DNA of 64,000 nucleotides from a plasmid. A program made the translations under genes and the position numbers. Below the pieces are notes generated by a model. It did no database searches and had not been told where the DNA came from. It saw only the letters and a list, made by a program, of their open reading frames with translations. Below are positions 18,967-49,847 of the stretch, piece after piece (position 1 is the first letter of the stretch; every line of letters begins with the position of its first letter). The stretch is from sequence record NZ_CP084013.1; one strand, written 5' to 3'.

Positions 18967-18993
18967 CTTATTTTTTCTATGTGAACATATTCA
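18967..18993 (-). promoter_or_regulatory. Copy 1 of conserved 26-nt motif (gene-strand TTGTTATACTGAATATGTTCACATAG), 15 nt upstream of the ssb RBS; putative extended -10 promoter + operator
   Basis: Seen directly in the sequence. TGTTATACT resembles TGn-TATAAT. Followed by the conserved box AATATGT(C/T)CACATAG, then AAGGAGACC and ATG. Confidence 0.5.
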
Positions 18994-19152
18994 GTATAAC
19001 AAGCATATACGAAGAAAAGGCATGTCGGATAAGCATCAGGACAGAGGAGAAAAACCTGACACCAATCCGACATACCCCTTTTAGCAGGATGGGCTCACTC
19101 CACTACGGCGGAATGAGCCCATCAAGGTTTCTATCCGATCAGCGTGACCGTC

Positions 19153-22128
19153 TTACAGGCGGATACGCTTCCTCGAACCAGCCAGAGCGAGAGCGATACC
19201 AGCTCCGGCGAGGACCCCGGCCCACAGGAGCATCGGGGTGCCGACACCAGTGGAGGCGAGACCCTTCTCCTTGACGAGCACAGTCTCGTTCGACTTGCGC
19301 GCGTCACCGTAGGAGATAAGCTTGCCGGACTTGTCGTACACCTTCTCACGCCAGTAGTAGGTGCCGGTTTCATGCACGGTCACGGTCGGCGAGTGGGCGC
19401 CGTCCACGGCGTCGACCTTACCGGTGACGGTGATGAGCACGTCTCCCGACTGGTCTCCGTTGGCCTGCTTCCACAGTTCGAATTCGGCCTTGGCTGCCTG
19501 CTCGCAGTTCTTGAGCAGGAGCTCGTCGTGCAGGTCGGCCTTACCGTTCTCGAACGTGACCTCACCCTGGCTCTTGGTGGACACCTCGCACTTCGGCACG
19601 TTGGGCTTCTTGCCTTGGACGCGCACGATTTCGGATGCGAGTCCGAAAGCGTGCTGCACCTTGCCGTGGGTGAGCTGACGCCATGCGAGGGCGGTGAGCG
19701 GATTATGGTTCTGGTCGCCGGTCAGACTCGGTGTCATGACCCAATGCCAGGCGTAGGTGCCGGTGTCAGTCAACGTGAACGAGTCGGTCGTGTAGGTGCC
19801 GAACTTGGTGACGTCCTTGATGTCGGCCTCGTGAACCTTCACCGCGTTTTCGGGCACGGTGTCGGTTTCCTCGATCGCGGCGGACGGGTCGTCACTCACC
19901 TTGTAGAGGACGCCGTGGAAGTCGAGGCTGAGCGGGGTGCTCTTCGCGGTCTCGCCTTCGGTGACGTTGGTCTCCGGGTAGGTGGGCCACACGTCCTTTT
20001 CGTTGGTCTTGGCGACGACGAGCTTGTCGATGGTGGTCTCCCCCGCCTTGACTTCCTTGCTGGACACCGTGGAGTCGAGCTTCGGGGTGAGGCGGATCAT
20101 GACGGTCTCATCCGCAGTGAACGGAGCCTCATGAACATCCTTGGCGAACGGATAGTCCTTGGACGGTTTGATACCGGTCTGGCTTTCCGTGTCCTGATCC
20201 TTGTTCGCGATGTCGAACACGAACGTGGCGTATCCGGATGGCAGGTTCGTCAGATCCACACCATCCTCGGCCTTCCATTGGGCGACAGGCTTGTCCTCGT
20301 CACTGCTGGAAATCAGGTAGTCGCCGGCCTTGTTCGTGGTGAACGTCGCGGTGGCGAGCTTCACGGCCTGTTTGGGTAGTTCGACGGTCTTGCCTGCGGC
20401 GGTATCCTTCTGAGCCTGTTCGGCCTGTTCGCGGGTCATACCACCGTAGATGGAGCCATTCACGGTAAGCGTGATCTGGTTGTCTTCCGTTTCCTTGCCT
20501 TCGCCCTGACCGTCCTTGGTGTGCAGCCAGTCCTGGGTGTCGACCTTGCCGTCACCGTTCACGTCGGTCACGCCCAGCGTGACCTTATCACGGATGATGC
20601 TGCCTTTTTCAAGGTAGACGACATCGGTCTTGTCGGATGCCTGAGCGGAACCGATTTGCACGCTCGGACGTTCGGTGCCGTCGGCGCCGGCCACCGTGCT
20701 CTGATCATTCTTGTAGGCGCCGCTCACACTCGACTTGATGGTCGGCTGCATGTTGCGCACATGCTGAGTGGATTCCGCTTCCAGCACGTTGTCAGACCAG
20801 TCGTAGTCCGTGGACAGGTACTGCCTCATGTTGGCGTCCTGCATGTCGGGCGTGATCTGCCACACCCACGTGTACCAGCCGGTGTCCGGCAGGCTCGACG
20901 GGGTGGCTCCCGGGTGCGTCTTCACGAAGTCGGGGTCCATGGTGATGGAGGCGGCGTCCACGTGATTGGTGGCGCCGTCCTTGTCGCCGGTGACGGTCGC
21001 GGTCGCGGCCTTCACCCCATCCTTGACGGTCGTCTGGCCTTCGACCGGCTTTTTCGCGAAGTAGTAGAGGGTGCCGGTGCTCTTGATGGTCGCGCCTTCA
21101 ATCCAGTCGCCACCGGACGGGTCCACATGCCAGGTCAGATCATCTTCGGGCGCATGCCCGTATTCGATGCGATGATCGGTCTGGTTGGATTCGATGGTCG
21201 GCTTGAAGTTGTTCAGCACCTCGAACTGGATGTTCTTCGACACGGTCTCGGGATCGGTAGCTGCCATCAGGTTCTGGTTCGGCGAGGACAGTTTGGCGGC
21301 CTTCGGAACCTTGTAATTAAAAACAGGCATAACCTTGCCATTGCCGGTTGCGGTCCACGCGACATGCTGCGCAGAATTCGTGGTGGTGCCGCTGATCGTG
21401 TTCTTGCCGGTCTGGTCGAACACGGCCGGGCCCTTCAGGGTCGCGGTGTACGTGATTCCTGAAAGGAAGCCGCCGTTCCCGTTCTGGATGCCGACATCGA
21501 TGGTGCCTTTGCGTTGGCCGATCGTGTACTGGTATCTCATGTCGAGGTTCGAGGGCGTGTTGGCGACCGCCTCATTCCACAACTCGTTCATCTTCTTCGT
21601 GTACGTGTCCCAGCTGGTGCCGTCCTTCCAGCCGAGGCGTTCGATGCCTTTCAGGTATTCTTCACCCATCGGATCGAGCTTCTGGTGGATGAGGCCCGCG
21701 ATCGCGGCCTGCGTGAGGTCGTCCGCGTTCCCGTTGTACTTGTCGGTCAGCCATGCGAGCCGTTGCGCGTCCGGTTTCGTCTTCGCGTCGGTCCACTCGC
21801 CCCACGTGCCCGCCGTGCCCGTGTAGAGCGTGTCGGCCTGGATGCAGTACACGTTCTTCCCGTTGACCTTGTCGACCACGCCGAGCGACTGCTCCATGTC
21901 CTCGTACTTGTGTCCGTTGCTGAACGTGATCGTACCCATGTTCGCCCACAAGCCCGGGTTGCCGTTCTGAATGGAGCGCTCAAACGGATCACGCATGTCG
22001 GCCGCGTCCGCCGTGCCCGCGACGAGCATGCCCGCCGCCAGGGTGGCGGCTGCCGCGACGCCCGCGGCGATCGTGCGGACCACATGCCGGATTGTGGAAC
22101 CGCGAGTGGGATTGTTGTTTCTCCCCAT
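19153..22128 (-). CDS. Large secreted LAXTG (LASTG)-anchored adhesin (991 aa); possible N-terminal thioester-type (TQxA-like) domain and isopeptide-repeat region
   Basis: Signal peptide (..IAAGVAAAATLAAGMLVAGTADA). C-terminus LASTG + TM + RKRIRL. N-terminal YCIQ and LTQAAI motifs resemble thioester-domain Cys/Gln motifs (weak). VaFE-like Bifidobacterium surface protein architecture. Confidence 0.75.
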   Translation of the reverse strand: MGRNNNPTRGSTIRHVVRTIAAGVAAAATLAAGMLVAGTADAADMRDPFERSIQNGNPGLWANMGTITFSNGHKYEDMEQSLGVVDKVNGKNVYCIQADTLYTGTAGTWGEWTDAKTKPDAQRLAWLTDKYNGNADDLTQAAIAGLIHQKLDPMGEEYLKGIERLGWKDGTSWDTYTKKMNELWNEAVANTPSNLDMRYQYTIGQRKGTIDVGIQNGNGGFLSGITYTATLKGPAVFDQTGKNTISGTTTNSAQHVAWTATGNGKVMPVFNYKVPKAAKLSSPNQNLMAATDPETVSKNIQFEVLNNFKPTIESNQTDHRIEYGHAPEDDLTWHVDPSGGDWIEGATIKSTGTLYYFAKKPVEGQTTVKDGVKAATATVTGDKDGATNHVDAASITMDPDFVKTHPGATPSSLPDTGWYTWVWQITPDMQDANMRQYLSTDYDWSDNVLEAESTQHVRNMQPTIKSSVSGAYKNDQSTVAGADGTERPSVQIGSAQASDKTDVVYLEKGSIIRDKVTLGVTDVNGDGKVDTQDWLHTKDGQGEGKETEDNQITLTVNGSIYGGMTREQAEQAQKDTAAGKTVELPKQAVKLATATFTTNKAGDYLISSSDEDKPVAQWKAEDGVDLTNLPSGYATFVFDIANKDQDTESQTGIKPSKDYPFAKDVHEAPFTADETVMIRLTPKLDSTVSSKEVKAGETTIDKLVVAKTNEKDVWPTYPETNVTEGETAKSTPLSLDFHGVLYKVSDDPSAAIEETDTVPENAVKVHEADIKDVTKFGTYTTDSFTLTDTGTYAWHWVMTPSLTGDQNHNPLTALAWRQLTHGKVQHAFGLASEIVRVQGKKPNVPKCEVSTKSQGEVTFENGKADLHDELLLKNCEQAAKAEFELWKQANGDQSGDVLITVTGKVDAVDGAHSPTVTVHETGTYYWREKVYDKSGKLISYGDARKSNETVLVKEKGLASTGVGTPMLLWAGVLAGAGIALALAGSRKRIRL

Positions 22129-22398
22129 ATCGTCTCCTCTGATAAGAAGGATATTTTGTCGCCAGAGATATTCACTGGACTCTTGCGGTTTTTACTGTAA
22201 CGTCAAATCTTGTAATTAACCGGTTTTTTATTGAAATTGACCGATATTTTTTGTGAGCGGCCACCTTGCCGTTGCGCTTGCAAGCTCATACCATTGGATG
22301 CACTCTGAAATTGTCCACGAAACAAGGCCTATCGGCGACCGTGTATTGGAAGCACGGTTCAGCCTGACAGTCAACGACATAGTATAAGGAAAATACAA

Positions 22399-23427
22399 AT
22401 GAACGAGAAAGAAGGACCTATGAACATGAACGTCACGCCACCGGTTGAGCCGGTGACGGAATTCGAAGTCCCCCTGCCTCCGGATCGTAAGCGTCCGAAG
22501 TGGCTGGTTCCGTTGATTGCGGGGAGTACTGCCGTCGTTGTTTTAGCGGCTGTCGGCACCGGTGGATACCTGTATTGGAACCATGATCGGTTGACGGCGG
22601 CTTCAGAGGAATGCGCCACCTCATACGACAGGGCGGTGAAGGCGCGGAAGAAGCTGACGGAGTATCTGGAGTCGGATGCGGTGAAGACCGCAATCAGGGT
22701 CAAGGATTCGGAGGTCAAGGACGCGAAAACGGTCGGGACGTTGGCTTCGACGGTGAAGGCTGTCGAGAAGACGAAGACCGATATCCCCGAATGCCCGGCG
22801 GATGGGTTGAAGGACATCAAGGCCGTGACCGCGCGGCTCGACAAGACCGCGACCGCGTATGAGAAGACCGTGAACGAGGTCAGGGGCAAGGCGAATGCGG
22901 TCAACGCCTCGAAGACCGACAAGACCGTCGCCGACGCGACCAAGGTCCTGGACGACTCCAAGGGCAGGGTGAAGGACGACAAGGTTCGCACCGCATTGGA
23001 GAACGCCATCAAATCGAAGGACGGGAAGGCGATCTCGGACGCCATGAAGGCGGTCAACGACTCCATCAAGGCGAAGTCGGATGCGGACGCGAATGCCAGG
23101 GCCGAAAAGGAGAAGCAGGCGGCGGAGAACACGGCCCAGGCGCCGGACAACGGCTCCTACACGGGCGGAACAACCGGAGGATACACCGGATACACCGGTG
23201 GTGGCTACACGCAATCCCAGGGCGGCGGCTACACGTACACTCCACAGCAGTCCACAGGTGGTTCGACCGGCGGCGGTTATACGCCGACGCCACAGCCGCA
23301 GCCACAGCAGCCTTCCCAGGGCGGTGGCAACGGAGGCGGTTCCACGGGAGGGGGCGACGGATATGAAAATATGTGTTTCGCATATCCCACTGACGGTTCG
23401 CCCGCAATCCAGGTTCCCTGCAGTTAA
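22399..23427 (+). CDS. Membrane-anchored coiled-coil protein with Gly/Tyr/Thr-rich tail and terminal Cys pair; paralog of 1914..2891
   Basis: N-terminal TM (WLVPLIAGSTAVVVLAAVGTGGYLYW). Helical K/D/A-rich region alignable with the 1914 protein. Tail GGYTGYTGGGYTQSQGGGYTYTPQQ...CFAYPTDGSPAIQVPCS. Confidence 0.55.
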   Translation: MNEKEGPMNMNVTPPVEPVTEFEVPLPPDRKRPKWLVPLIAGSTAVVVLAAVGTGGYLYWNHDRLTAASEECATSYDRAVKARKKLTEYLESDAVKTAIRVKDSEVKDAKTVGTLASTVKAVEKTKTDIPECPADGLKDIKAVTARLDKTATAYEKTVNEVRGKANAVNASKTDKTVADATKVLDDSKGRVKDDKVRTALENAIKSKDGKAISDAMKAVNDSIKAKSDADANARAEKEKQAAENTAQAPDNGSYTGGTTGGYTGYTGGGYTQSQGGGYTYTPQQSTGGSTGGGYTPTPQPQPQQPSQGGGNGGGSTGGGDGYENMCFAYPTDGSPAIQVPCS

Positions 23428-23519
23428 CCTATCCTTTTCAGGAGCGAGGGCGACGCATCCTATTCTCATGGGATGTGCCGCCCTCGTCTTTTATGGGACT
23501 GTCGTTTCGGTTTGTCTCT

Positions 23520-23932
23520 TTAGTAGGAGCCGGATGCGGCGAATAGGATGCCTGCGAATACGATCCATAGGATGAAGAGTACGACGTTGATGATCACTGA
23601 AACCAGTGCGCCCTTGCCTGCCATGCCCGCATCACCAGGACGGTCGTTCTTCCAGATCATCCACAGAATAAGCCCGACCAGAGGAATGAAGAAGCCGAGA
23701 ACAGCCCAAACCGAAGGAGCCTGTGTCGGAGGGAGTTCTCCCATAGGATGCCGTGGGCTGCGGGTATACGGGGTTGAACTGGCGGCGCATAGTTCGGCTG
23801 CCCGTAGGCTGGTTGCGGTTGCGCGTATTGAGATTGGTTGGGTGAAGCGTATTGGACTGGCTGTGACGGCTGGACTGGCTGCCCGTAGGCGGGCTGTGGT
23901 GGTTGGGTTGGATATGGTGTTGGATTGCTCAA
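23520..23932 (-). pseudogene. Small membrane protein (Pro/Gln-rich N-terminus + 2 TM, DUF4190/TM2-like) split over two frames; probable frameshift or sequencing error
   Basis: ORF 23657..23932 encodes MSNPTPYPTQPPQPAYGQP...; ORF 23520..23744 encodes the TM hairpin (..WAVLGFFIPLVGLILWMIWKND...VLFILWIVFAG). Frames differ by 1 with an overlap at ~23700-23744. Confidence 0.4.
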
Positions 23933-23974
23933 GTGGGTTCTTGTTGACTATCTTAGGACTTTAGGAACTCCTCT

Positions 23975-24424: not shown

Positions 24425-24452
24425 TCATCGGCAAGCGGATTGCACGCCGCTT

Positions 24453-26106: not shown

Positions 26107-26111
26107 TCACT

Positions 26112-27089: not shown

Positions 27090-27100
27090 GATTTCCTCCT

Positions 27101-27367: not shown

Positions 27368-27370
27368 CGG

Positions 27371-28319: not shown

Positions 28320-28324
28320 GACTC

Positions 28325-31331: not shown

Positions 31332-31626
31332 CGTCGTCCGCCTTTCACATGCCGCCGGCGTCCGGGCTGTCCGATATAGGAGAGCGTCCATTCCCCGGCG
31401 TCCCGCGTACGGTCGAGTGAATTTTCAACGTTTGCGTTTTCGTTGTTCGTTGTCGTGTTTGGTGTCCGTCTTGTCGCCTGTTTCTTTTCCGGCGAAGGCG
31501 AGCACTATCGTGCAGATGAGGCACGTGATGAGGATGAGCGTGGTTCCTGGGTCGATTGCCATCAGGCTCGCTGCCCTGTTGTTTGATGTTTTCCGAGCAT
31601 GATTGGTGCCTTCTACGAAAATTTTA

Positions 31627-31653
31627 TGTGGACTAATTCAGTATAACAGGTAT
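31627..31653 (-). promoter_or_regulatory. Copy 2 of conserved 26-nt motif (gene-strand CCTGTTATACTGAATTAGTCCACATAA), reading leftward into the small-gene operon (first tiny ORFs at ~31600 and ~31585-31450)
   Basis: Seen directly. Divergent partner of copy 3, ~80 bp apart. Followed by GAAGG RBS-like element and ATG. Confidence 0.5.
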
Positions 31654-31731: not shown

Positions 31732-31759
31732 CTGTTATGCTGAATATGTCCACATAGAA
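31732..31759 (+). promoter_or_regulatory. Copy 3 of conserved motif (CTGTTATGCTGAATATGTCCACATAGAA) immediately followed by AAGGAGAG RBS and ATG of 31771 gene
   Basis: Seen directly. -10-like element here is TATGCT. Confidence 0.5.
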
Positions 31760-31770: not shown

Positions 31771-32781
31771 ATGACCAACCAAAACAAGTCAGACCAAGCC
31801 CGCCAACGACGCCGCAGCTCGGACGGACGATTCGCGGACGAAGACAAGCAGGACAGCCTCCCCTCCGACACAAAAATCCAACAGGTGGCCAGCCTCCTCA
31901 CCGACGACACGGAGCCTGACTTCAACCAGCTGCTCACAGCCACCGGCGCATTCGACGACCCCTACGAGGCACGCCATATCGAATTCGACATGCCCGACGG
32001 ATCCACCCTCAACGGCTACGCCTTGGACGATGGGCGAATCGACCGCAACAAGGTGCCGGCCGGCTGGCACGCCTACTCCGTAATGGAAAGCGACGGCGAC
32101 GAAGACGGGGAAACCACCCTGTCCATCGACCATGACGGGTACGTGAACCACAGGATGGACTTCATCACCACCGAAGACCTCAGCCAACGCATAGACAGCG
32201 GCCAACTGACCGAAATCCACGGCGACGACTGGGGCTTCACCGACAACGACCTCGTGGACGATCTCGCCGAAAAATCCGGGGATGACGACTTCGACCTCGA
32301 CACTGAACTGGAGGAGAAACGCCACGACATGATGGATTCCGCCATCCGAGACCAGATCTTCTTCAAACCCGACGAGGAGAACATGACCGCGTTGAAGGCC
32401 GCCGCATGGCAGACCATCAACCACGACGAGCAGAACAAGGGCGAATCCACGATCGGCGACCTGCGCATAGCCCCATCCATCAACCCCCACGACCTGCATC
32501 TGGAAGACATGAGCGAGGAACAGATCAAAGAGGCCCGCAAGTACGGTGGATGGGACCCCGACAAGCACAAGTACGTGCACTTCAACCAAGACGGCGACTT
32601 GGAAGGCCTCACCGAGAAACAGGCTGACAAGCTGATCTGGGACAACCGGCAGCGCATCCTACAAGCAGTCCGTGACGACGATTCCGCGAACTTCAGCACC
32701 GTCAACCTGCTGCATAACTGTTTCAACCGTGAACGACAGGTACGCGAACACGACTACACGACACCGGGCGACAAGCGATAA
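31771..32781 (+). CDS. Highly acidic protein (336 aa) with conserved Arg-rich N-terminal leader (family member 1 of 5)
   Basis: MTNQNKSDQARQRRRSSDGRFADEDKQDSLPSD... then very D/E-rich body. Leader shared with the 34308, 49955, 50564 and 51108 proteins. Confidence 0.6.
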   Translation: MTNQNKSDQARQRRRSSDGRFADEDKQDSLPSDTKIQQVASLLTDDTEPDFNQLLTATGAFDDPYEARHIEFDMPDGSTLNGYALDDGRIDRNKVPAGWHAYSVMESDGDEDGETTLSIDHDGYVNHRMDFITTEDLSQRIDSGQLTEIHGDDWGFTDNDLVDDLAEKSGDDDFDLDTELEEKRHDMMDSAIRDQIFFKPDEENMTALKAAAWQTINHDEQNKGESTIGDLRIAPSINPHDLHLEDMSEEQIKEARKYGGWDPDKHKYVHFNQDGDLEGLTEKQADKLIWDNRQRILQAVRDDDSANFSTVNLLHNCFNRERQVREHDYTTPGDKR

Positions 32782-32795: not shown

Positions 32796-33458
32796 ATGGC
32801 AGAGGCCATCAACGAAATGGAACGTAGGCTCGCGGAATCAAACCCGCATGCCGGCCCGAACGCGAAGACCGAAGACTTCAACCAGCAACCACCCTCGGTG
32901 AAACCAGCAGGGAAACGCCACCGCACATCACCGGCACCGAGAAAAACGGATGAGGACACGAAAACCGCTGCAGAAACCCCATCACAGCAGGCCGAAGAGA
33001 CCTGGCAGACTCAAACCGGAAGGCCGTTCTGCATCATTCCGAAACCCACATGGCAGGAGCTGGCCCATGCGGCACTCCCCCAGCTACTGCAAGCCGTCGG
33101 ACTACTCATCCTGGTCATCGTATCCCTGCTGGCAAGGCAAACCGCATTGGCGGTCATCTGCCTGCTCGCCCTGATCGCATTCGTCGGCTGGCGGCTTGCG
33201 ACCTACGGCTGGACTCCCATGGAAACCGTTCGTCGAACCATCGAACATGGTTACGGTGTGGCGGTCGTCCGTCTCCTGAACGCAGATGACATGAACCAGC
33301 CAGTCCGGGTCATCACCGAAGGCGGACAGTATGTCGCCTGGTATACGGACGGCAGGGAGAATCGCATCCACACCGCCATTCTCATAGTCAACAAGGGTCG
33401 AATCGCATTGACCACACCGGACATGGGCATCCTGCCCACCCTAGGGGCGACAATTTGA
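32796..33458 (+). CDS. Membrane protein (220 aa, 2 TM)
   Basis: TM helices LPQLLQAVGLLILVIVSLLA and LAVICLLALIAFVGWRL. 4-nt overlap with the next gene. Confidence 0.45.
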   Translation: MAEAINEMERRLAESNPHAGPNAKTEDFNQQPPSVKPAGKRHRTSPAPRKTDEDTKTAAETPSQQAEETWQTQTGRPFCIIPKPTWQELAHAALPQLLQAVGLLILVIVSLLARQTALAVICLLALIAFVGWRLATYGWTPMETVRRTIEHGYGVAVVRLLNADDMNQPVRVITEGGQYVAWYTDGRENRIHTAILIVNKGRIALTTPDMGILPTLGATI

Positions 33459-34222
33459 TGCGCACATTGTTCGTCGGCGACCTGCATGCGAAAGCAGACC
33501 TGTTGCCGCTAATCACCCGAGTCGCCAGACGAGAGCATGCGGAACGCATCGTGCTATTGGGCGACATCTGCGATGACTGGAACGTGTCGAACAACGGGCT
33601 GGTCCGGTTCTTCGATACGTTTGCCGCATGGTATCGGCGTGAATCCCTTGAACGTGAGGTGATTCCACTGCTCGGCAATCATGATGTGCCGTACTTCCTG
33701 AAGCAAGGCTCCTCCTCCTATGCGCGAGTGCGCGCACTGGCGCCCGGCTTCAAACCCGGCGCCCATCGCAAGGTGCATGAGCTGATGCAAAATATCCCAT
33801 TCCAACTGGCTTGGTCGGATGGGAACATTCTGGCCACGCACGCCGGGCTCACCCGTGCATGGGGGCGACGGCGGCTGGGCGCCGATTACATGGACATGCC
33901 GGTCGAGGAAGTCGCGGATCGCTTGAACCGAATGCTCCTCCATCCGGCCTCACTGGTCGTGCCCATGACGGACATCGGCCCGGCGCGCGGCGGCGCAGGA
34001 ACGCCTTCTCCCCTATGGTGCGATCGCGGCGAGTTCGCCGAAGACGGGGACATGCACCTGACTCAGGTGGTCGGGCATACGCCCGTACCGACCGTATTGC
34101 ATGAGCATGATGCGTGGTTCTGCGACACGTTTTCCACGATGAGCAACGGTACTCCCATTGGCGACGGGTCTCTGCTCATGTATTCGGAGAGCGGATTCTA
34201 TCCAGTGCCTCTTCTTGGCTGA
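33455..34222 (+). CDS. Metallophosphoesterase (calcineurin-like Ser/Thr phosphatase / ApaH / lambda-PPase type)
   Basis: Motifs GDLHA, GDICDDW, GNHD, ...H in canonical order (FVGDLHAK...LLGDICDDWN...LLGNHDVPY...ATHAGL...). Confidence 0.75.
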   Translation: MMRTLFVGDLHAKADLLPLITRVARREHAERIVLLGDICDDWNVSNNGLVRFFDTFAAWYRRESLEREVIPLLGNHDVPYFLKQGSSSYARVRALAPGFKPGAHRKVHELMQNIPFQLAWSDGNILATHAGLTRAWGRRRLGADYMDMPVEEVADRLNRMLLHPASLVVPMTDIGPARGGAGTPSPLWCDRGEFAEDGDMHLTQVVGHTPVPTVLHEHDAWFCDTFSTMSNGTPIGDGSLLMYSESGFYPVPLLG

Positions 34223-34991: not shown

Positions 34992-35358
34992 TCCGCTTCT
35001 CCTGCAATGCCGCGAACAGGCGCCCTGTCGCGCCGTTCCTGGACCAGCGGTTGAACAGTTGGCAGACGGTGACCCACTTGCCGCAGCACTCCGGCAGGTC
35101 CCTCCACGGGCTCCCGTGCGGCACATCCACGGCAGGGCGTTGACGAACGTGTGGTTGTCGACCGCCACGTTGCCGTGCTATCGCGGCAACGGATGCGCGA
35201 CCCTCATGAACCGGTCAGGCGTGATGTCATACCTCGGCGTACGCATACGACAATCATCACGCAAAACTTAAATAGGGTAAACACACCCCTAGTTTTTTTG
35301 ATATTCGCCGACCCGTTTCCTTTTTTTGGGGAGGCGGGTTTTGTCTTATCCTATTTGT

Positions 35359-35383
35359 CTGTTATACTGAATATGTCCACATA
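35359..35383 (+). promoter_or_regulatory. Copy 4 of conserved motif (CTGTTATACTGAATATGTCCACATAAAA), followed by AGAGGAAACC and ATG of 35402 gene; possible -35 TTGTCT 16 nt upstream
   Basis: Seen directly in the sequence. Confidence 0.5.
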
Positions 35384-35401
35384 AAAACGAAAGAGGAAAC
35401 C

Positions 35402-35593
35402 ATGAAGCGCTACGCCATCAACTATGAGGAAACCTACTCAGGCACCTTCACCGTCGAACTCGACGACGACTCCACCGAACAGGATGCCATCAACGAACTC
35501 CTCAACAACGCCGACGAATACCGTCTAGGCGAACAGGTCGAACTCAGCGACAGTGACGCACAGGTCATCAAGACCGAAAATGTGGAGGACTGA
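35402..35593 (+). CDS. Small acidic protein (63 aa)
   Basis: MKRYAINYEETYSGTFTVELDDDSTEQDAINELLNNADEYRLGEQVELSDSDAQVIKTENVED. Strong RBS. Downstream of motif copy 4. A 30-aa ORF follows at ~35597-35689. Confidence 0.5.
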   Translation: MKRYAINYEETYSGTFTVELDDDSTEQDAINELLNNADEYRLGEQVELSDSDAQVIKTENVED

Positions 35594-41147: not shown

Positions 41148-41273
41148 AAACATCAGGCAATACGCAAAACCCGTACGCCAACAACAACCGGTGACAAAGA
41201 AGGGTCGACGCGCGTCGTTCGGACAGAGAACCGGAAAACGCGCACCGACCCTTTCCACACAGTATAGCGTGCC

Positions 41274-43166: not shown

Positions 43167-43241
43167 TAACCCGCTTTAGGGCTGTTGCCTGTTACCGAAC
43201 TGTTTTGTTTTCTTAAGTAATCCTATGTTATAATAAATCCC

Positions 43242-43835
43242 ATGTTGGTAAAGGAATGGGCCAGACTGGAAGGATTGCATCCGCAGACCGTGTGGAAATG
43301 GTGCCGTCAGGGCACCATGCCCGTTCCTGTGGAACAGACGCCGACCGGCATGTGGCTCATCCACGACCCGAAATACGAGACCATGCCGCAATCGAAAAGC
43401 ATGGAACCCCGCACCGTCTGCTATGCGCGAGTATCCAGCGGCGACCAAAAGAACGACCTGCAACGTCAAGCCGACCGGTTGAAGGCGTTCGCTCTGAACA
43501 TGGGTGTCGAGCGGCCGGAGGTGGTCATGGAGACCGGTTCAGGCATGGACGACAGGCGGCGCAAGCTCAACCGGCTATTGTCCGACCCGACCGTGGGCAC
43601 GCTGATCGTGGAGCACAGGGACAGGCTCGCCCGCATGAACGCGGGACTGGTGGAGAGCGCGTTGAAGGCGCAGGGACGCCGAATCATCGTGGTGGACGAC
43701 ACGGAGCTGGACGACGATCTGGTGCGCGACATGACCGAGGTGCTGACCTCGTTCTGCGCGAGACTGTACGGACGCCGCGCGGCCAAGCATCGTGCGGAGA
43801 AGGCGTTGGAGGCGATGCGCGATGAGCGCGTATGA
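43242..43835 (+). CDS. tnpA: IS607-type serine recombinase transposase (MerR-like HTH + resolvase catalytic domain)
   Basis: N-terminal HTH (MLVKEWARLEGLHPQTVWKWCRQG). Catalytic CYARVSSGDQ serine motif. 197 aa. Confidence 0.85.
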   Translation: MLVKEWARLEGLHPQTVWKWCRQGTMPVPVEQTPTGMWLIHDPKYETMPQSKSMEPRTVCYARVSSGDQKNDLQRQADRLKAFALNMGVERPEVVMETGSGMDDRRRKLNRLLSDPTVGTLIVEHRDRLARMNAGLVESALKAQGRRIIVVDDTELDDDLVRDMTEVLTSFCARLYGRRAAKHRAEKALEAMRDERV

Positions 43836-45144
43836 GGCCGTTAGGATTCGGCTCGACCCAACCCCACGGCAGACACGGCTGTTGGAATCCCATGCGGGCG
43901 GCGCGCGTTTCGCATACAATCTGATGCTCGCTCACGTCCAGCGCCAAATCTCCTTGGGTGAGAAACCGGACTGGACGTTGTACGCGATGCGCCGCTGGTG
44001 GAACGAGTGGAAGGACGAAATCGCCCCGTGGTGGCGGGAGAACAGCAAGGAGGCGTACAACAGCGCGTTTGAATGGCTGTCCCAAGCGTTGAGGAACTGG
44101 TCGGACAGCAGGAAGGGCAGGCGCGCGGGCCGCAGGGTGGGCTGGCCGAAATACAAGTCGAAACGCTCCGGTGTCCCGCGTTTCGCATACACGACCGGCA
44201 GCTTCGGCCTTATCGAGGACGACCCGAAGGCGTTGAAACTGCCACGCATCGGACGCGTGCACTGCATGGAGAACGCCACCGAACGCGTCCACGGCAGACG
44301 AATCGTGCGCATGACCGTCAGTCGCCATGCGGGCTTCTGGTATGCGGCCCTCACCGTCGAACGTCCCACCGAAAGCGTTCCCGCGAAAAACAGAAAACAG
44401 AAGAACCGTAATCGTCAGGTCGGCGTGGATTTGGGCGTCAGGACCCTCGCCACCCTCTCGGATGGCACCACGTTCCCCAATCCACGCAACTACGTCCGCA
44501 TGCAACGGAAACTCCGCCACGCCCAACAGGCGTTAAGCCGCCGCGACAGGGGCATGAGCCATGGATGCGGGTCGAAACGGTACAACAGGGCGTTGGGGCG
44601 CGTGCGCCGAATCCACGCCCGCATAGCCGCCCAACGAGCCGACAACATCAGCAAGCTCACCACGTGGCTCGCCGACAATTATTCCGACATCAGCATCGAA
44701 GACCTCAACGTGCAAGGCATGAGCCATAACAGGAGGCTTGCCAAACACATACTGGACGCGGACTTCCACGAGTTCCGCCGCCAACTGGAATACAAGACCG
44801 CACGCGCCGGCACGAGGCTCCATGTCATCGACCGCTGGTATCCAAGCTCGAAGACCTGTTCGAACTGCGGGACGGTGAAAGCCAAACTGCCCCTGTCCGA
44901 ACGCGTCTACCATTGCGGCAAGTGCGGACTTGTCATCGACCGTGATGTGAACGCGGCCATCAACATCCAAGTCGCCGGGAGTGCCCCGGAGACGTTAAAC
45001 GCGCGTGGAGGAAGCGTAAGACAGACCCGCCTTGAGTGCGGGACAATGCGGCATCCGGCGAAACGCGAACCAAGCGGCGGCGACAGTCGCGTGAGACTTG
45101 GAGCTGGTCTCGGCAACGAGGCCATGCAGATGACTCCGCTCTAG
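43825..45144 (+). CDS. tnpB: TnpB (OrfB) of the IS607 element
   Basis: Start taken at MSAYEAVRIRLDPTPRQ. C-terminal CSNCG...CGKCG zinc finger + DRDVNAAINI. Confidence 0.85.
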   Translation, partial: SAYEAVRIRLDPTPRQTRLLESHAGGARFAYNLMLAHVQRQISLGEKPDWTLYAMRRWWNEWKDEIAPWWRENSKEAYNSAFEWLSQALRNWSDSRKGRRAGRRVGWPKYKSKRSGVPRFAYTTGSFGLIEDDPKALKLPRIGRVHCMENATERVHGRRIVRMTVSRHAGFWYAALTVERPTESVPAKNRKQKNRNRQVGVDLGVRTLATLSDGTTFPNPRNYVRMQRKLRHAQQALSRRDRGMSHGCGSKRYNRALGRVRRIHARIAAQRADNISKLTTWLADNYSDISIEDLNVQGMSHNRRLAKHILDADFHEFRRQLEYKTARAGTRLHVIDRWYPSSKTCSNCGTVKAKLPLSERVYHCGKCGLVIDRDVNAAINIQVAGSAPETLNARGGSVRQTRLECGTMRHPAKREPSGGDSRVRLGAGLGNEAMQMTPL

Positions 45145-45162
45145 CGACAAGCTAAAACAAAG

Positions 45163-45438
45163 TCATCTACAACGGTGCAACATGTCCACTAGTTTCTGTG
45201 GTATTCCGTCCTCGATATCCCATTCGACGGTTTCGAACCGGCTGTTCGAGGCGGCGGCCCGATCGTCGCCAACCTCAATGCTCACATCGGAGCCGTCCGG
45301 GAAATACTTGATCAACGTCATAGTGCCGCGGCCGGGCGGAAAGCTCACGTGGAACCCGCCGCCCAATGCGGTGGCGATATCGACCGCATTGCATGCTGCC
45401 TCGCCGCTCACATAGGTCAGCCGTTCGCATTCATCCAT
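45163..45438 (-). CDS. Hypothetical small protein (~91 aa)
   Basis: Genuine-looking C-terminal part of track ORF 45163..45660 starting at MMDECERLTYVSGEAACNAVDIA... Confidence 0.3.
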   Translation of the reverse strand: MDECERLTYVSGEAACNAVDIATALGGGFHVSFPPGRGTMTLIKYFPDGSDVSIEVGDDRAAASNSRFETVEWDIEDGIPQKLVDMLHRCR

Positions 45439-45932
45439 CATTCGCCGTCCCCGTTGTTCTTCCGATACTCTTCGCTGGCGATGTACGTGACCGCGAAGTC
45501 GGCTATCTGGTCGCGCAGCCTCGGAAACGCCTCCCTGCCCGCCTTCTGGCGCCGGTCCATGATCCATGCGAACAAGCCGAAAAGGATGCAGCCGCCCAGC
45601 AGCCCGTAGCAGTTCGCGTCGGCCGGCTGATGCGATGAAAGGGCCGCCAGGCCTGCCCACCAGCCGATGCCGAGCATGATGCCAAGCGCGTGCATGCCGA
45701 TCGCGAACGGGGTCTCGTCATCATCCACGATGTCCAGCCAGCATTGCAATCCAAGGACGACGAGCAGGAACGCGACAAGCCACAACGGCGAGTGGAGAAG
45801 TCCGACGAGCAGCGGCGTATGGTTCGCGGCCAGCCAGGCGAGGATCGGCCCGTGGTTGAATGCGAACACGATCGCCATAATAAATAGGACGATCGCCGTC
45901 CACGCGAGACGGCGCACGGCTTCCAGACTCAT
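45438..45932 (-). CDS. Membrane protein (164 aa, 4-5 TM)
   Basis: Hydrophobic helices throughout (LAWTAIVLFIMAIVFAF; LWLVAFLLVVLGLQCW; LGIMLGIGWWAGLAAL; CILFGLFAWIM). Confidence 0.45.
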   Translation of the reverse strand: MSLEAVRRLAWTAIVLFIMAIVFAFNHGPILAWLAANHTPLLVGLLHSPLWLVAFLLVVLGLQCWLDIVDDDETPFAIGMHALGIMLGIGWWAGLAALSSHQPADANCYGLLGGCILFGLFAWIMDRRQKAGREAFPRLRDQIADFAVTYIASEEYRKNNGDGE

Positions 45933-46011
45933 GATTCCTCCCCCTGCTGCCTTCCTGTCCGATTCAGCCGATCATGCCGCAGTTCCGCGGCCCACCAATC
46001 GTATGTGTTCA

Positions 46012-46608
46012 TCATCGCCTGCCCTCCATCATCAAATCCAATATGACGGCCAATGGCACCACGTCATGACTGGCGTGGGCCTTACACACGGGACCGTACC
46101 AGCCGGTTTCGGGCATATCCTCACAGTCGGGGCCGTCCGTCCGCATCCAACGGCGGATCGCGACCACGGGTTTGCCGCAGGATTCGTAGTCGCCGTCGCG
46201 GGATACGCCGGCCGTGCATCCTAGACGCAGCCAGGACGGGTCGCATAAGGCGAAGACGCGCATCGGGTCGTATGGCCATACGCCCGATAGCGGTGGCATG
46301 AGCGACGGATCATGCTTCCAGCAGCCGGCATCGGCCACGGCCTTCAACACCTCCGATAGCGGGACGACATCATGGTTGGCATGCAGCTTGCACGCGGGTC
46401 CGTAGACGCCCTCCTTGGGTAAAAATTCGCTATCGTCGTACCCGTCGTCGCGTGTCCAACGGCGGATGGCGACCGGCGGCCTGCCGCACTGTTTGAAATT
46501 CTCGCCCTTCCAGCAGCCGGCCGCGCAGCCGAGCCGCAGGGCCAACGGGTTGCATCGTTCGGCGATGAGCTTCGGATCGTACGGCGTTGGTTTCTTGCAT
46601 TTGGTCAT
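46012..46608 (-). CDS. Cys-rich protein made of two tandem ~95-aa repeats (hypothetical)
   Basis: Internal duplication: ..DPKLIAERCNPLALRLGCAAGCW...CGRPPVAIRRWTRDDG...GVYGPACKLHANHDVVPL.. repeated as ..DPMRVFALCDPSWLRLGCTAGVS...CGKPVVAIRRWMRTDG...GWYGPVCKAHASHDVVPL.. Confidence 0.5.
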   Translation of the reverse strand: MTKCKKPTPYDPKLIAERCNPLALRLGCAAGCWKGENFKQCGRPPVAIRRWTRDDGYDDSEFLPKEGVYGPACKLHANHDVVPLSEVLKAVADAGCWKHDPSLMPPLSGVWPYDPMRVFALCDPSWLRLGCTAGVSRDGDYESCGKPVVAIRRWMRTDGPDCEDMPETGWYGPVCKAHASHDVVPLAVILDLMMEGRR

Positions 46609-46664
46609 TGCTTTTTCTCGTTTCCGACTTTACTTTATATACCTTATATGGTATATTTATGGGT

Positions 46665-47024
46665 ATGTGGCAGATAGAGATGGAACCCATCAAGGACTGG
46701 CTTGACGGACTTGACAAACAGACCGCCTACCAGGTCTACGCGGCCCTTGACCTCCTTCGGGAACGCGGACCGAACCTCAAACGCCCCCTGGTGGGGAAAA
46801 TCGAGGGCTCCATCATCGGCTCCATGAAGGAACTGAGACCCGGTTCGACAGGTCGAAGCGAAGTCCGAATCCTGTTCGTCTTCGACCCGGAACGCAAAGC
46901 GGTCCTATTGGTCGGCGGAGACAAACAGAACAAATGGAACAAATGGTATAAGACAGCCATCCGCGAAGCCGAACGACGGTACATCCGGTGGCTGGAAGAA
47001 CAACATGGGAAGGACACGAAATGA
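46665..47024 (+). CDS. Type II toxin, Gp49/HigB-like (RelE/ParE superfamily; phage-derived killer protein DUF891)
   Basis: MWQIEMEPIKDWLDGLDKQT...GKIEGS...MKELRPGS...RILFVFDPERKAVLLVGGDKQNK. Paired with a downstream XRE HTH with ATGA overlap. Near-palindrome TACCTTATATGGTA just upstream (possible operator). Confidence 0.7.
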   Translation: MWQIEMEPIKDWLDGLDKQTAYQVYAALDLLRERGPNLKRPLVGKIEGSIIGSMKELRPGSTGRSEVRILFVFDPERKAVLLVGGDKQNKWNKWYKTAIREAERRYIRWLEEQHGKDTK

Positions 47025-47329
47025 GCTACACGTTGGAGGACTTCAAGGCCGATCACGACCTTGACCAGAAGACCATCGACGAGCGCAAGGAACAGCTTCT
47101 TGAGGAGATGCGCCTGTATGAGCTGAAAGAAGCGCGCAAACAGCAGGACGTGACCCAGAAGCAGCTCGCCGAACGCATGGGCGTCAGCCAGAAGCGGGTC
47201 AGCAGTCTCGAATCCGGCGACGTCGACAAGACCGAAATCCGTACGCTGCGCCGCTATCTCGACGCCATCGGCGGCAGGCTTCAGGTCAACGCGATCATGC
47301 CGGACGGGCGCACCCTGCAACTGGTCTGA
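47021..47329 (+). CDS. XRE-family HTH antitoxin (HigA-like) partner of the Gp49-like toxin
   Basis: ...ARKQQDVTQKQLAERMGVSQKRVSSLESGDVDKTEIRTLRRYLDAIGGRL. Start MSYTLEDFK overlaps the toxin stop. Confidence 0.75.
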   Translation: MSYTLEDFKADHDLDQKTIDERKEQLLEEMRLYELKEARKQQDVTQKQLAERMGVSQKRVSSLESGDVDKTEIRTLRRYLDAIGGRLQVNAIMPDGRTLQLV

Positions 47330-47343
47330 GATCAGGTAACCCG

Positions 47344-47637
47344 TCATGCCACCGGCTTCCACCCCAGATTCGGTTTCCCCGCCTTCATCCACGCCTTGTA
47401 GTTGATGCGATGCCGGCGGGTCAGACCGTGGATGACGTATTTCAGTTCGGCGATGAAGCCGGATACCGTACGCGTACTGTCATCCTCGATGAGGGTCTCA
47501 TCGCAGGGAATGCAGGACAGGCCGCATGTCGGGTTCGGCCAATGCGGGACGAGGAGAAGGAAGCCCAACGCCAGAAGGCCGAATACGACGGGAAAAGTGA
47601 CGAATCCGGCGGCATATCCAATCCAGAACATGCTCAT
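47344..47637 (-). CDS. Small membrane protein (~97 aa)
   Basis: Start taken at MSMFWIGYAAGFVTFPVVFGLLALGFLLLV (internal Met of track ORF), adjacent to the stop of the upstream small gene. Confidence 0.35.
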   Translation of the reverse strand: MSMFWIGYAAGFVTFPVVFGLLALGFLLLVPHWPNPTCGLSCIPCDETLIEDDSTRTVSGFIAELKYVIHGLTRRHRINYKAWMKAGKPNLGWKPVA

Positions 47638-47801
47638 CGCGTCACGAAGTGGGTAATCATCAGTGTTCCTGAGGTTGCGAATCCGATTGATGCGATGACC
47701 ATTGCGAGCCCTGTGACTCTCCACATGAAGCATGCGCAGAGGACGCATGTTATGGCGAGTATGATGTTGGCGTTTTTTTCGAAGTTCTTGTACGTGTTCA
47801 T
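47634..47801 (-). CDS. Small membrane protein (~55 aa); start probably the second ATG (MNTYKNFEKN...)
   Basis: ILAITCVLCACFMW...GLAMVIASIGFATSGTLMI. Directly downstream of motif copy 5. Confidence 0.4.
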   Translation of the reverse strand: MNTYKNFEKNANIILAITCVLCACFMWRVTGLAMVIASIGFATSGTLMITHFVTR

Positions 47802-47817
47802 TGTGGTTTCTTTCATT

Positions 47818-47842
47818 CTATGTGGACATATTCAGTATAACA
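47818..47842 (-). promoter_or_regulatory. Copy 5 of conserved motif (gene-strand TGTTATACTGAATATGTCCACATAGAATGA) upstream of small membrane-protein operon
   Basis: Seen directly in the sequence. Confidence 0.5.
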
Positions 47843-47913
47843 TATAAATGAAAAAATTATGCAAGGTTTGAAATAAAAAATCCCCCGATGCCATACGGCG
47901 CCGGAGGATTATT

Positions 47914-47929
47914 TGTCCACATAGAATGA
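47914..47929 (+). promoter_or_regulatory. Partial inverted copy of the motif's downstream box only (TGTCCACATAGAATGA), ~70 bp from copy 5 in opposite orientation
   Basis: Shares 21/23 nt (ATTATTTGTCCACATAGAATGA vs GAATATGTCCACATAGAATGA) but lacks the TGTTATACT -10 part. Intervening 70 bp contains a GC-rich imperfect hairpin. Confidence 0.4.
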
Positions 47930-48130
47930 CGTTTCATAGAAACCAATGATCCTACGACAGCAAAAGCTGCAAGACCCAAAGTAGGTGAACTACTGGACAT
48001 GCTCACACAAGATGCTATGGCGCGGAAAAATCACTCGCCGTCCATAATTTTTTAGGCAGGGTACCACGACCCTTGTGGTCGTGGGTGAATGCCTTTCCTT
48101 TCCACTAACATTATGATATAATGTTTTTTA

Positions 48131-49342
48131 TTGGAGGTGAAGCATATGGTGGAACTCGCATTGACCATGAAAGTCAAGCTCACGACCAACAAACACGAGT
48201 CTGAAGCCCTTAACCGCCTATGTGACAATTACACCTCCTGTTGCAACGAAGTATCCGATTGGATTGGAGAACACCACACCCTCAGCCAGAGGAAAATCAA
48301 CGAGGCTGTCTATCACCCGCTACGCGACAAATACGGACTGTTGGCCCAGATGACCCAATCTTCGATACGGCGGGTCATCGCGTCCTACAAGGCAATTCAC
48401 TCGCGCATGGAACGCCGGAACGGAGAAAACCCCAAGAGAAAGAGGACGGCATACTATTCCACCAGACCAAAGTACTCGTCCGCCGGTGTTGACCTGCTGT
48501 GGAACCGCGACTACTCCTATTCGCCCATGACGGGAATGTTCAGCCTTCCCGTCATGGGCGGGAGAATCAAAGTGAAAGCCCAATGGAAGGGAACCCCGGA
48601 CGAATACCGTACGGCACGTTTCGGTACCGCCCGACTGATATCGAAACGAGGCAAATGGTACCTGCATATTCCCATCATCCTACAGGTTCCCGACCCAACC
48701 CCAAGCCCCAAAAACATAGTGGGCGTGGACTTGGGCATCCGAATGCTCGCCACCAGTTATGACGGCGAAACCACCGTCTTCCAACATGGAGGGGAGGTGA
48801 AAAGCAAGCGCGGCAAATACAAGCGGCTCCGTCAACAGTTGCAGAAACGCGGCACCCGAAGCGCTCGCAGACGACTCAAGACCATAGGCGACAGAGAAAA
48901 CCGTTGGATGACTGATGTGAACCATCAGGCGTCTAAGGCACTCGTCAACCATTACGACAGGGATACGATGTTCGTTCTCGAAGACCTTACGGGAATCCGC
49001 AATGCGACCGAACAGGTCAGGGTCAAGGACAGGTATGTTCAGGTCAGTTGGAGTTTCCACCAATTCCGGCAGATGGTCGAATACAAGGCGAAACGCAACG
49101 GTCAGAAAGTCGTGTTCGTTGACCCGGCCTACACAAGCCAGACCTGCCCGAAATGCGGGAAAATCCGCAAAGCCAACCGTGACAAGAAACGCCACCTGTA
49201 TGTCTGCCGCAACTGCGGATACCGGTCCAACGACGACCGGATAGCCGCGATGAACCTGCGACACAAAGGCTACGACCTTTTGAGCTCGCAGTACGCCGCC
49301 AGCATGACTGACGGCGTAAGGGTGCAGTCAACCACCCTATGA
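48131..49342 (+). CDS. tnpB: Stand-alone TnpB (IS1341/IS605 OrfB-type RNA-guided nuclease homolog); no tnpA adjacent
   Basis: 403 aa. RuvC-like core. C-terminal CPKCG...CRNCG zinc finger + DDRIAAMNL. AT-rich upstream region. Confidence 0.85.
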   Translation: MEVKHMVELALTMKVKLTTNKHESEALNRLCDNYTSCCNEVSDWIGEHHTLSQRKINEAVYHPLRDKYGLLAQMTQSSIRRVIASYKAIHSRMERRNGENPKRKRTAYYSTRPKYSSAGVDLLWNRDYSYSPMTGMFSLPVMGGRIKVKAQWKGTPDEYRTARFGTARLISKRGKWYLHIPIILQVPDPTPSPKNIVGVDLGIRMLATSYDGETTVFQHGGEVKSKRGKYKRLRQQLQKRGTRSARRRLKTIGDRENRWMTDVNHQASKALVNHYDRDTMFVLEDLTGIRNATEQVRVKDRYVQVSWSFHQFRQMVEYKAKRNGQKVVFVDPAYTSQTCPKCGKIRKANRDKKRHLYVCRNCGYRSNDDRIAAMNLRHKGYDLLSSQYAASMTDGVRVQSTTL

Positions 49343-49507
49343 TGTTCCGTCAATTAAAGGTAGGAGAACGGTTACAGCCGTTCACTGGCACTACCGGACA
49401 GGGACAAGCCGCAATGCTCGTCATTGCGGTCGTTGACATACAATTCCTCGTCCGCGATCTCCTCGCTTCCCTCGAACACGATCGCGCCTTCATCGTCACG
49501 ATGCTCG

Positions 49508-49801
49508 TCAAACCACGCTTTGGCCTCCTTTCCTGCTGGTCTTAGTAGGAGGGGTTTCTTTGAGCCACATCTCGAGGAGTTCTGGTGAGTTGATTTCGGC
49601 AGACAGCTTTTCGACGTATGCCTTGTCGCGCTTGTACTGGCAGTTGGGGCACCGTTGGCAGCGTTCCATCCAGCTTTTCTGGCAGGCGCTGATGTCCTCG
49701 TAGACGCGCTTGTGCCCGCAAATGAAGGTGACTTCGCGGGTGGCGAGGATGTCGTGGTCGAGGTCGTTGGTTTCGTGTTGTTCTTCGATGGTGAGTGCCA
49801 T
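49508..49801 (-). CDS. Small Cys-rich protein (97 aa; CxxxH...CxxxxxxxC..CxxC), possible zinc-ribbon/HNH-like
   Basis: ..FICGHKRVYEDISACQKSWMERCQRCPNCQYKRDK.. Immediately downstream of motif copy 7 with RBS AGAGGAAACC. Confidence 0.45.
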   Translation of the reverse strand: MALTIEEQHETNDLDHDILATREVTFICGHKRVYEDISACQKSWMERCQRCPNCQYKRDKAYVEKLSAEINSPELLEMWLKETPPTKTSRKGGQSVV

Positions 49802-49820
49802 TGGTTTCCTCTTTCATTAT

Positions 49821-49847
49821 CTTTATGTGGACATACTCAGTATAACA
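49821..49847 (-). promoter_or_regulatory. Copy 7 (6th full copy) of conserved motif (gene-strand CTGTTATACTGAGTATGTCCACATAAAGA)
   Basis: Seen directly. One substitution in the spacer (GAGTATG vs GAATATG). Confidence 0.5.

Follow-up and report, generated by a model that had tools for sequence, protein, structure and literature searches.

The plasmid record NZ_CP084013.1, of which a stretch of 64,000 nucleotides (nt) was analysed here (the window), carries a 26-nt box with the consensus TGTTATACTGAATATGTCCACATAGA in six full copies and one partial copy. Very probably, the box joins an extended -10 promoter of the host sigma factor to a predicted protein-binding block lying on the transcription start site, an architecture that heads about 25 operons of one megaplasmid. 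As the protein on this block we prefer the host replication initiator DnaA, as a candidate; for the cassette as a whole, that is, promoter plus start-site operator with DnaA in this role, we see somewhat less than an even chance. As a discovery the box is already known, and the likeness to DnaA boxes and the lineage-specific flanks described below are small additions to it.

The box is a promoter type of Bifidobacterium megaplasmids

Searching the whole window with TGTTATACTGAATATGTCCACATAGA and allowing up to 3 mismatches, we obtained six copies (with 1, 3, 1, 1, 0 and 2 mismatches for copies 1-6 in order), and none in 100 dinucleotide-preserving shuffles. A position-weight matrix built from 51 box copies scored the six at 50-60 bits, and the rest of the window and the shuffles at 12 bits at most; given this gap, a site has either the full box or none. 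All six are oriented toward an open reading frame (ORF), with a purine-rich Shine-Dalgarno sequence between box and start codon, and the distances from the box end to the ATG are 23, 22, 12, 16, 15 and 20 nt. An earlier reading of the window, made from the sequence only, had listed the six full copies and the partial one, with coordinates that were off by 1-9 nt. It had also placed the copies upstream of ribosome-binding sites and ATG codons, correctly, but at 12-15 nt, where the actual range is 12-23 nt, and had put the G+C content above 65%, where the window has ~59% (0.52-0.65 per 2 kb).

The window derives from a pMP7017-family megaplasmid of B. longum. It aligns over most of its length with Bifidobacterium longum plasmids of 184-198 kb at 91-97% identity, the best match being NZ_CP146883.1 (pDS1566), and with pMP7017 of B. 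breve JCM 7017 at 80-91% identity; a phage collection contained no DNA match to it. The element is thus a conjugative megaplasmid of 190 kb and not an integrative element. To our knowledge, pMP7017-type plasmids are the only large conjugative plasmids in Bifidobacterium.

The motif, first believed to be undescribed, was published in January 2024 by Dineen, Bottacini, O'Connell-Motherway and van Sinderen (Microb Biotechnol 17:e14405; PMC10832533) as a box of 34 base pairs (bp), 5'-AWAYATGYTATACTGAATATGTCCACATAAAAWA-3', which overlaps the -10 element and lies within 60 bp upstream of translation starts. Their transcriptome study of pMP7017 reported 19 copies in all, 13 of them beyond the initial set, whereas we count 24; it proposed a regulon of 56 genes, or ~24% of the coding capacity, and found the motif absent from chromosomes (PMC10832533). 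RNA sequencing (RNA-seq) placed transcript starts at the motif sites ("presumed" start sites), with six motif-headed genes highly expressed and the transfer-messenger RNA (tmRNA) of pMP7017 highly transcribed (PMC10832533). The published reading is that of a transcription-factor site, and the paper names no regulator (PMC10832533); our literature search found no later paper naming a regulator of the pMP7017 motif. The published regulon table includes ssb with a methylase gene (p0197/p0198) and the LPD28 operon (p0215-p0223) (PMC10832533), which are headed by copies 1 and 3 of the window. The box of the window therefore agrees with the published motif in sequence, overlap with the -10 element, proximity to start codons, plasmid family and the genes that it heads, and differs from it in the 5' flank, which is TTTRCY in the B. 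longum lineage of the window and AWAYA in the pMP7017 motif. Plasmids of this type were found in ~10% of metagenome samples from the human gut, most of them taken from mothers and infants (PMC10832533), and a single box heads about a quarter of their genes.

Allowing up to 7 mismatches, we counted 25 copies in pDS1566 (10 on the plus and 15 on the minus strand) and 24 in pMP7017, against none in shuffles, and in both plasmids they are spread around the whole ~190 kb on both strands. The genes behind them include ssb, parA, a dnaB-containing operon, cas6e-casA-casB, a DUF4192 gene, a 3'-5' exonuclease gene, divIVA-secE-secG, an RNA-ligase operon and many orphans. One copy lies ~320 nt upstream of the tmRNA gene, which is followed by 23 transfer RNA (tRNA) genes on the same strand (pDS1566 181311-189108); since it heads an untranslated array, the box serves transcription and not translation. 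The box is, in short, a general promoter type of the megaplasmid.

This distribution bears on the proposal that the box marks a mobile element's early or leading-region regulon, with single-stranded DNA (ssDNA) promoters like those of ssb, ardA and psiB in conjugative plasmids. Typical establishment genes (ssb, the orphan methylase gene and that of the LPD28 protein) are indeed among the targets, a strong hairpin precedes the ssb copy, and the ssb and anti-restriction-type genes driven recall Frpo-type ssDNA promoters. The Frpo type, however, has its -35 and -10 elements inside a long hairpin, on one strand and in one region. The -10 of the box is outside the ssb hairpin, the other copies have no such hairpin, and the promoters are active in established, growing cells. 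Because the copies lie around the whole plasmid and face both ways, with parA, the dnaB operon, cas and divIVA/secE/secG genes and the tmRNA-tRNA array behind them, a leading-region regulon of an integrative element does not hold. A variant would have the box read by a plasmid sigma factor or RNA polymerase, and its 26-bp conservation does recall the promoters of phage RNA polymerases; neither kind of protein is annotated on the plasmids, though, and the box is a good extended -10 of host type. We regard this explanation, variant included, as extremely improbable. The large orphan proteins of the plasmids were also considered as a plasmid RNA polymerase, and discarded for having neither a Pfam match nor a convincing DxDGD catalytic motif.

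Beyond the family, the box is nearly absent. A scan of 185,579 species-representative genomes (one per species) returned a single match, in B. ramosum DSM 100688 (contig 13, 7885-7908, minus strand; TGTTATACTGAATGCGTCCACATA), 30 nt upstream of a gene for a protein of 311 amino acids (aa) and in DNA without similarity to the megaplasmids. In IMG/VR, at least 117 stretches carry the box, and among the matches listed all are megaplasmid relatives, alignable over a median of 95% of their length. Among the genomes and the IMG/VR matches listed, the B. ramosum copy is the only one found outside the megaplasmid family. IMG/VR classes these Bifidobacterium megaplasmid contigs (9-171 kb) as viral genomes, while conjugation of pMP7017 has been shown by experiment; phage-like replication genes do occur in the family, namely those for an Enc34-type ssDNA-binding protein/DUF2815, a PD-(D/E)XK nuclease, DnaB and an exonuclease.

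An extended -10 and a block on the predicted start site

Conservation was measured over 51 unique copies from three plasmids (the window, pDS1566 and pMP7017), and flanks over copies grouped into 76 independent flank contexts. The core TGTTATACT (TGnTATACT, box positions 1-9) is nearly invariant, with TG one base before the TAnnnT hexamer, which bears out the earlier description of the 5' half as an extended -10. Invariant throughout are T9, G10, C21, A22 and T23, and at least 90% of the copies agree at each of G2, T4, A5, A7, G16, T17, C18, C19, A20 and A24. No conserved -35 element was detected over the 76 flank contexts, only a T-rich stretch; a few copies have TTGACA or TTGACT 16 nt upstream. 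After the box comes a short, A-rich leader with the Shine-Dalgarno sequence. A promoter scan also called an antisense promoter once from TGGACA, the reverse complement of TGTCCA; we dropped it, as alignments inspected by eye showed the matching -10 to be conserved in neither lineage.

Positions 16-24 form an asymmetric block, GTCCACATA. In line with the earlier remark that conservation of the 3' half exceeds the needs of a promoter and that this half also occurs by itself, stand-alone halves were found: at 47913-47925 in the window, at 155614 in pDS1566 and at several sites in pMP7017. The 5' half, in turn, never occurs without the 3' half. As a side observation, the promoter at pDS1566 32144-32169 (minus strand) keeps the 5' half and has a degenerate 3' half (ACATCTGCA); it heads an operon that encodes a 1,439-aa ATPase and a lysozyme, probably the transfer apparatus, and may escape whatever binds GTCCACATA.

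The same 3' half had been described as a TATG-N4-CATA inverted repeat and as an operator or leader-RNA site, and the proposal of a regulator site has since also been made in print (PMC10832533). An RNA element would make it a hairpin at the 5' end of the leader, a binding site for a protein or small RNA, or a translation enhancer, and it is true that the stand-alone halves start almost at the predicted transcription start and that two of them precede a Shine-Dalgarno sequence and ATG in sense orientation. But the apparent palindrome TATGT-CC-ACATA is one in appearance only: its left arm varies in 11-14 of the 51 copies and its right arm hardly at all, not one compensatory change is seen in the 51 copies, and the covariation score, which the sequence-only reading had put forward as a check on an RNA structure, equals that of shuffled controls. 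The absence of compensatory change and the much weaker conservation of the left arm argue against a hairpin or a symmetric dyad. Moreover, the left arm would lie upstream of the predicted start, the predicted leaders fold no better than shuffled sequence (z-scores -0.2 to +1.4), no Rfam family matches the box, and the box also drives the untranslated tmRNA/tRNA transcript. Without covariation or leader structure, and with an untranslated RNA array behind one copy, the box functions in DNA and not in RNA; an RNA element is very unlikely.

We therefore return to the promoter with a block at its start. The extended -10 would be read by the host primary sigma factor (sigma-A), and transcription would start at about position 16, near G16, given the usual spacing of 6-8 nt after a -10. 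With such a start, the block GTCCACATA lies on the predicted start site and would act as an operator at +1. A protein bound there could set how often RNA polymerase opens or leaves some 25 plasmid promoters together.

The flanks of the box tell its lineages apart. At 14 promoter pairs that are orthologous in pMP7017 and pDS1566, identity of the genes behind the box is 70-97% and the box is kept, while the 25 nt upstream of it are no longer alignable. Immediately before TGT, 22 of the 24 pMP7017 copies have an A (flank AWAYA), as against 2 of 23 pDS1566 copies (flank TTTRCY), and among the IMG/VR matches listed ~40 contigs have the B. longum flank pattern and one isolate contig has that of pMP7017. 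The leader differs likewise, being AATGAAAGAGGAAA in the B. longum plasmids and ATAATYGAAAGAGGAAA in pMP7017, with a likeness that fades away from the box. Flank and leader differ in concert even at orthologous promoters (AWAYA with ATAATYGAAAGAGG in pMP7017, TTTRCY with AATGAAAGAGG in B. longum), which suggests either homogenisation among the copies of a plasmid or co-evolution with a factor that reads these positions.

Homogenisation is what one would expect if the box needed no dedicated factor and were, together with its leader and initial transcribed sequence, a strong promoter sufficient in itself, moving as a cassette and made uniform by duplication, recombination or gene conversion; such repeats may even aid the exchange of modules between plasmids. 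The paralogous likeness reaches into the leader and the Shine-Dalgarno region, the flanks are specific to the lineage, several copies directly follow a terminator in the manner of portable units, the tmRNA copy retains the leader-like AATGAAAGAGG though no ORF stands behind it, and motif promoters are highly expressed. Yet we know of no base-specific contacts of RNA polymerase from +1 to +9 that would fix nine positions, the 3' half occurs alone, without a -10, and is conserved between plasmids, 26 bp of identity is at or below the usual minimum for efficient homologous recombination, and orthologous sites keep the core while their near flanks are wholly replaced. We consider a promoter cassette without a factor improbable.

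Repeats of comparable kind are known from phages: the asymmetric stoperators of mycobacteriophage L5, the start-associated sequences of Cluster K phages, and the promoter early stem-loops (PeSLs) of T4-type phages, which are mobile promoter cassettes. Like the box, these form sets of dozens of nearly identical sites that are asymmetric, keep one orientation with respect to transcription and occupy short intergenic gaps beside start codons, and some follow terminator hairpins as portable units would. The L5 stoperators, however, bind the phage repressor and are mostly located at a distance from promoters, whereas the box overlaps a -10, and the Cluster K sequences, unlike the box, sit at the ribosome-binding site. 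We know of no circular or mobile intermediate for the megaplasmid box.

DnaA as the preferred candidate, and a plasmid-encoded regulator

Box positions 14-22 read ATGTCCACA, which is identical at 8/9 positions to the DnaA box TTGTCCACA of actinobacteria; positions 3-9 of the DnaA box are represented by the invariant GTCCACA. In M. tuberculosis and S. coelicolor, TTGTCCACA is the DnaA box of high affinity (PMC4285127), and the DnaA box types reported at the oriC of B. longum include TTATCCACA and TTGTCCACA (PMC2430713). Compared with TTGTCCACA, no more than 1 mismatch is present in 33 of the 51 copies and no more than 2 in 46; within the window, the ssb copy has 2 mismatches and each of the other five has 1. 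The variation among copies follows the known degeneracy of DnaA boxes (Y at 2, R at 3, C/T at 5). The chance that a random or shuffled 26-mer matches TTGTCCACA at 8 or more of 9 positions is 0.3-0.4%. The stand-alone halves are better DnaA boxes than the full copies, and the partial copy of the window contains a perfect TTGTCCACA (47913-47921). In both complete plasmids CTGTCCACATAAAA is preceded on the same strand by ATCCACA, 6 nt before it, and by a perfect TTATCCACA, 13 nt before it. Finally, the core of the box, which a host protein could read, is the same in the lineages of B. breve and B. longum, whereas each lineage has flanks of its own.

A triple of TTATCCACA, ATCCACA and CTGTCCACA within 29 bp (pDS1566 155594-155622, pMP7017 60351-60379) follows, at a short distance, the gene downstream of the plasmid dnaB and is identical in both lineages, with differing flanks; it could be a DnaA-dependent regulatory or replication site.

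Neither of the pMP7017 papers links the motif to DnaA: the 2021 replicon study looked for DnaA boxes in the replicon only and reported none in B. longum megaplasmid replicons (PMC8313286), and the 2024 text does not mention DnaA (PMC10832533). A literature search for TTGTCCACA alone returned primer sequences only.

DnaA boxes serve as promoter operators in several systems, among them E. coli dnaA, mioC, nrdAB and guaB and the DnaA regulon of B. subtilis, and DnaA stimulates lambda pR. The box shares with them an asymmetric 9-mer of the local high-affinity type, in fixed orientation and, by prediction here, on or just downstream of the transcription start. The known cases, in contrast, are single chromosomal or phage promoters, whereas here ~25 promoters of one plasmid have the putative DnaA site at an identical distance from the -10; and, unlike in those cases, conservation extends 2-4 nt beyond the 9-mer.

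Several observations weigh against this reading. T23 and A24 lie outside the DnaA 9-mer and yet are as invariant as its core; the conserved CTGAAT between the -10 and the DnaA-like box is not explained by DnaA; and DnaA-box position 1 is A, and not T, in 40 of the 51 copies. Outside the motif, RTCCACA is not enriched in pDS1566 (47 found, 44 expected) and only mildly so in pMP7017 (66 found, 43 expected). Since the box was compared informally with several known operators, the chance figure given above is to be multiplied several-fold. Neither dnaA nor dnaN belongs to the set of host genes that respond to plasmid carriage, and there is therefore no sign of DnaA titration by the plasmid. The transcription start itself is predicted from spacing and RNA-seq coverage only. 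Motif promoters, including that of the tmRNA, are highly active in growing cells, and thus any repression would be partial.

Weighing these points, we put DnaA as the factor bound at the box clearly below an even chance, though ahead of any other candidate. If the factor of the published pMP7017 regulon were the host DnaA, expression of the plasmid genes would be tied to host DnaA and to replication status, with the plasmid reading this state for about a quarter of its genes, and each plasmid copy would add ~25-30 high-affinity DnaA sites to the cell; we regard this as less likely than not. A DnaA operator would be an unusual case of a mobile element that couples most of its transcription to the replication initiator of its host, and would offer a simple handle for tuning expression from bifidobacterial vectors.

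The other kind of factor would be a plasmid-encoded regulator that binds the whole ~34-bp box, the likeness to a DnaA box being coincidental. Operators shared by many promoters of a plasmid are well known from KorA and KorB of the IncP plasmids RK2/RP4 and from the repressor network of R388, and such networks coordinate replication, maintenance and transfer genes. The likeness is that of a short sequence at many promoters of a conjugative plasmid, overlapping core promoter elements; but those operators are palindromes, in the KorA/KorB type with both arms conserved, and have known plasmid-encoded repressors, whereas the box is asymmetric, conserves one arm, and includes the -10 in the repeated unit. 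Two candidates came to attention, a 215-aa XRE-type helix-turn-helix (HTH) protein, whose gene is divergent from the box-bearing DUF2815 promoter, and an HTH_26 protein, after which an ImmA/IrrE protease and a zinc-ribbon protein are encoded; both HTH proteins are present in pMP7017 and pDS1566, with 79% and 57% identity. The confinement of the motif to the pMP7017-type family, in the published study (PMC10832533) and in the searches made here, would be natural for such a regulator, as would conservation beyond the DnaA 9-mer on both sides; the concerted lineage change of the 5' flank (the A before TGT) would fit co-evolution with it. In addition, a repB promoter fusion is 1.6-fold less active in the presence of pMP7017 although RepB does not bind its own promoter (PMC8313286), which hints at a plasmid-borne repressor; a box adjoins the repB upstream region and may or may not lie on the cloned fragment. 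Neither HTH protein, on the other hand, is linked to the box, so strong an asymmetry is unusual for dimeric HTH repressors, and the core is identical in both lineages though the candidate proteins have diverged. Nor do the first genes behind the boxes have a recognisable DNA-binding domain: Pfam scans of 38 products encoded behind or near boxes assigned few functions and no DNA-binding first gene. We judge a plasmid-encoded regulator rather unlikely; if it were the factor, the box would be the entry point to the plasmid's master regulator.

Two further proteins were set aside. One is p0202, labelled DnaA in the published annotation, which is an AAA_16/ORC-like ATPase without the DnaA DNA-binding domain and has no homologue in pDS1566, in the window or, among the matches listed, at IMG/VR loci. 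The other is a WhiB-like protein, present in pMP7017; its operon is interrupted by an insertion sequence (IS) in pDS1566, and it is therefore not universal.

The copies of the window and their neighbours

Copy 1 (TGTTATACTGAATATGTTCACATAGA; 18976-19001, minus strand) is the promoter of ssb (18362-18952, minus strand), whose product matches Pfam SSB at 1.8e-17, confirming the assignment made before. It is orthologous to the ssb site of pMP7017, the published regulon entry p0197/p0198. Its operon runs from ssb through an inserted IS200/IS605 tnpA-tnpB pair to an N6_N4 DNA methylase gene (15380-16645, minus strand). The inserted element (16642-18254, minus strand; tnpA 17811-18254, tnpB 16642-17814) splits ssb from the methylase gene, whereas the two adjoin in pDS1566. 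Directly upstream of the ssb box lie two strong hairpins, 19019-19076 and 19088-19123, with arms of 22 nt and 14 nt, and a DNA fold of 251 nt in this region scores z = -5.2. The distal hairpin probably terminates the surface-protein gene; the proximal one has no counterpart at the other copies.

Copies 2 and 3 are the arms of a divergent pair. Copy 2 (TGTTATACTGAATTAGTCCACATAAA; 31623-31648, minus strand), orthologous to pMP7017 181665-181690, is followed by a 12-codon ORF (31562-31600) that overlaps the start of an ORF for a 45-aa membrane protein (31425-31562). Copy 3 (TGTTATGCTGAATATGTCCACATAGA; 31733-31758, plus strand), orthologous to the site at pMP7017 183006, is the promoter of the gene for the LPD28-domain protein (31771-32781), downstream of which lies a metallophosphoesterase gene (33455-34222).

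Copy 4 (TGTTATACTGAATATGTCCACATAAA; 35360-35385, plus strand) comes directly after a terminator-like hairpin (35310-35340) and is the promoter of a gene for a 63-aa protein (35402-35593) and of the genes downstream; here the promoter scan reads TTGTCT-16 nt-TATACT, with TG preceding the second hexamer. Of the two products that might answer to the acidic protein noted earlier, the 63-aa one is acidic, with an isoelectric point (pI) of 4.05, and the 97-aa product behind copy 6 is Cys-rich instead, with a pI of 5.9. Copy 5 (47817-47842, minus strand) has the exact consensus and is the promoter of a gene for a 60-aa predicted membrane protein (47634-47816). Facing it is the partial copy, the stand-alone 3' half TTGTCCACATAGA at 47913-47925 (plus strand), which has no -10 upstream, forms with copy 5 a 19-nt inverted repeat, and is conserved in pDS1566 at 61746-61754. 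Copy 6 (TGTTATACTGAGTATGTCCACATAAA; 49822-49847, minus strand) is the promoter of the gene for the Cys-rich protein (49508-49801), and its flanks are identical in pDS1566 (61512-61537).

Elsewhere in the window, the Rfam Transposase-2 RNA (RF03015, 84.8 bits) was found at 45060-45128 (plus strand), at the 3' end of a 450-aa ORF on the same strand (43792-45144), and this region aligns with an IS607-family tnpB of a B. pullorum plasmid; TnpB copies are many in the pMP7017-type plasmid family. Guidance of TnpB by its omega-RNA was considered and rejected: the only pieces of the box of at least 11 nt are promoter copies and stand-alone halves, none of them near a tnpB 3' end. Interference by the plasmids' own type I-E CRISPR system was rejected likewise, as no spacer of the pDS1566 array matches the box; the last CRISPR repeat of the plasmid adjoins a box copy. 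The plasmids encode type I-E cas genes without an annotated cas3, together with secY, secE, secG and DivIVA-like proteins, and in pDS1566 five tandem genes of ~480 bp (87570-89966) include four that encode an identical protein (WP_338715618.1).

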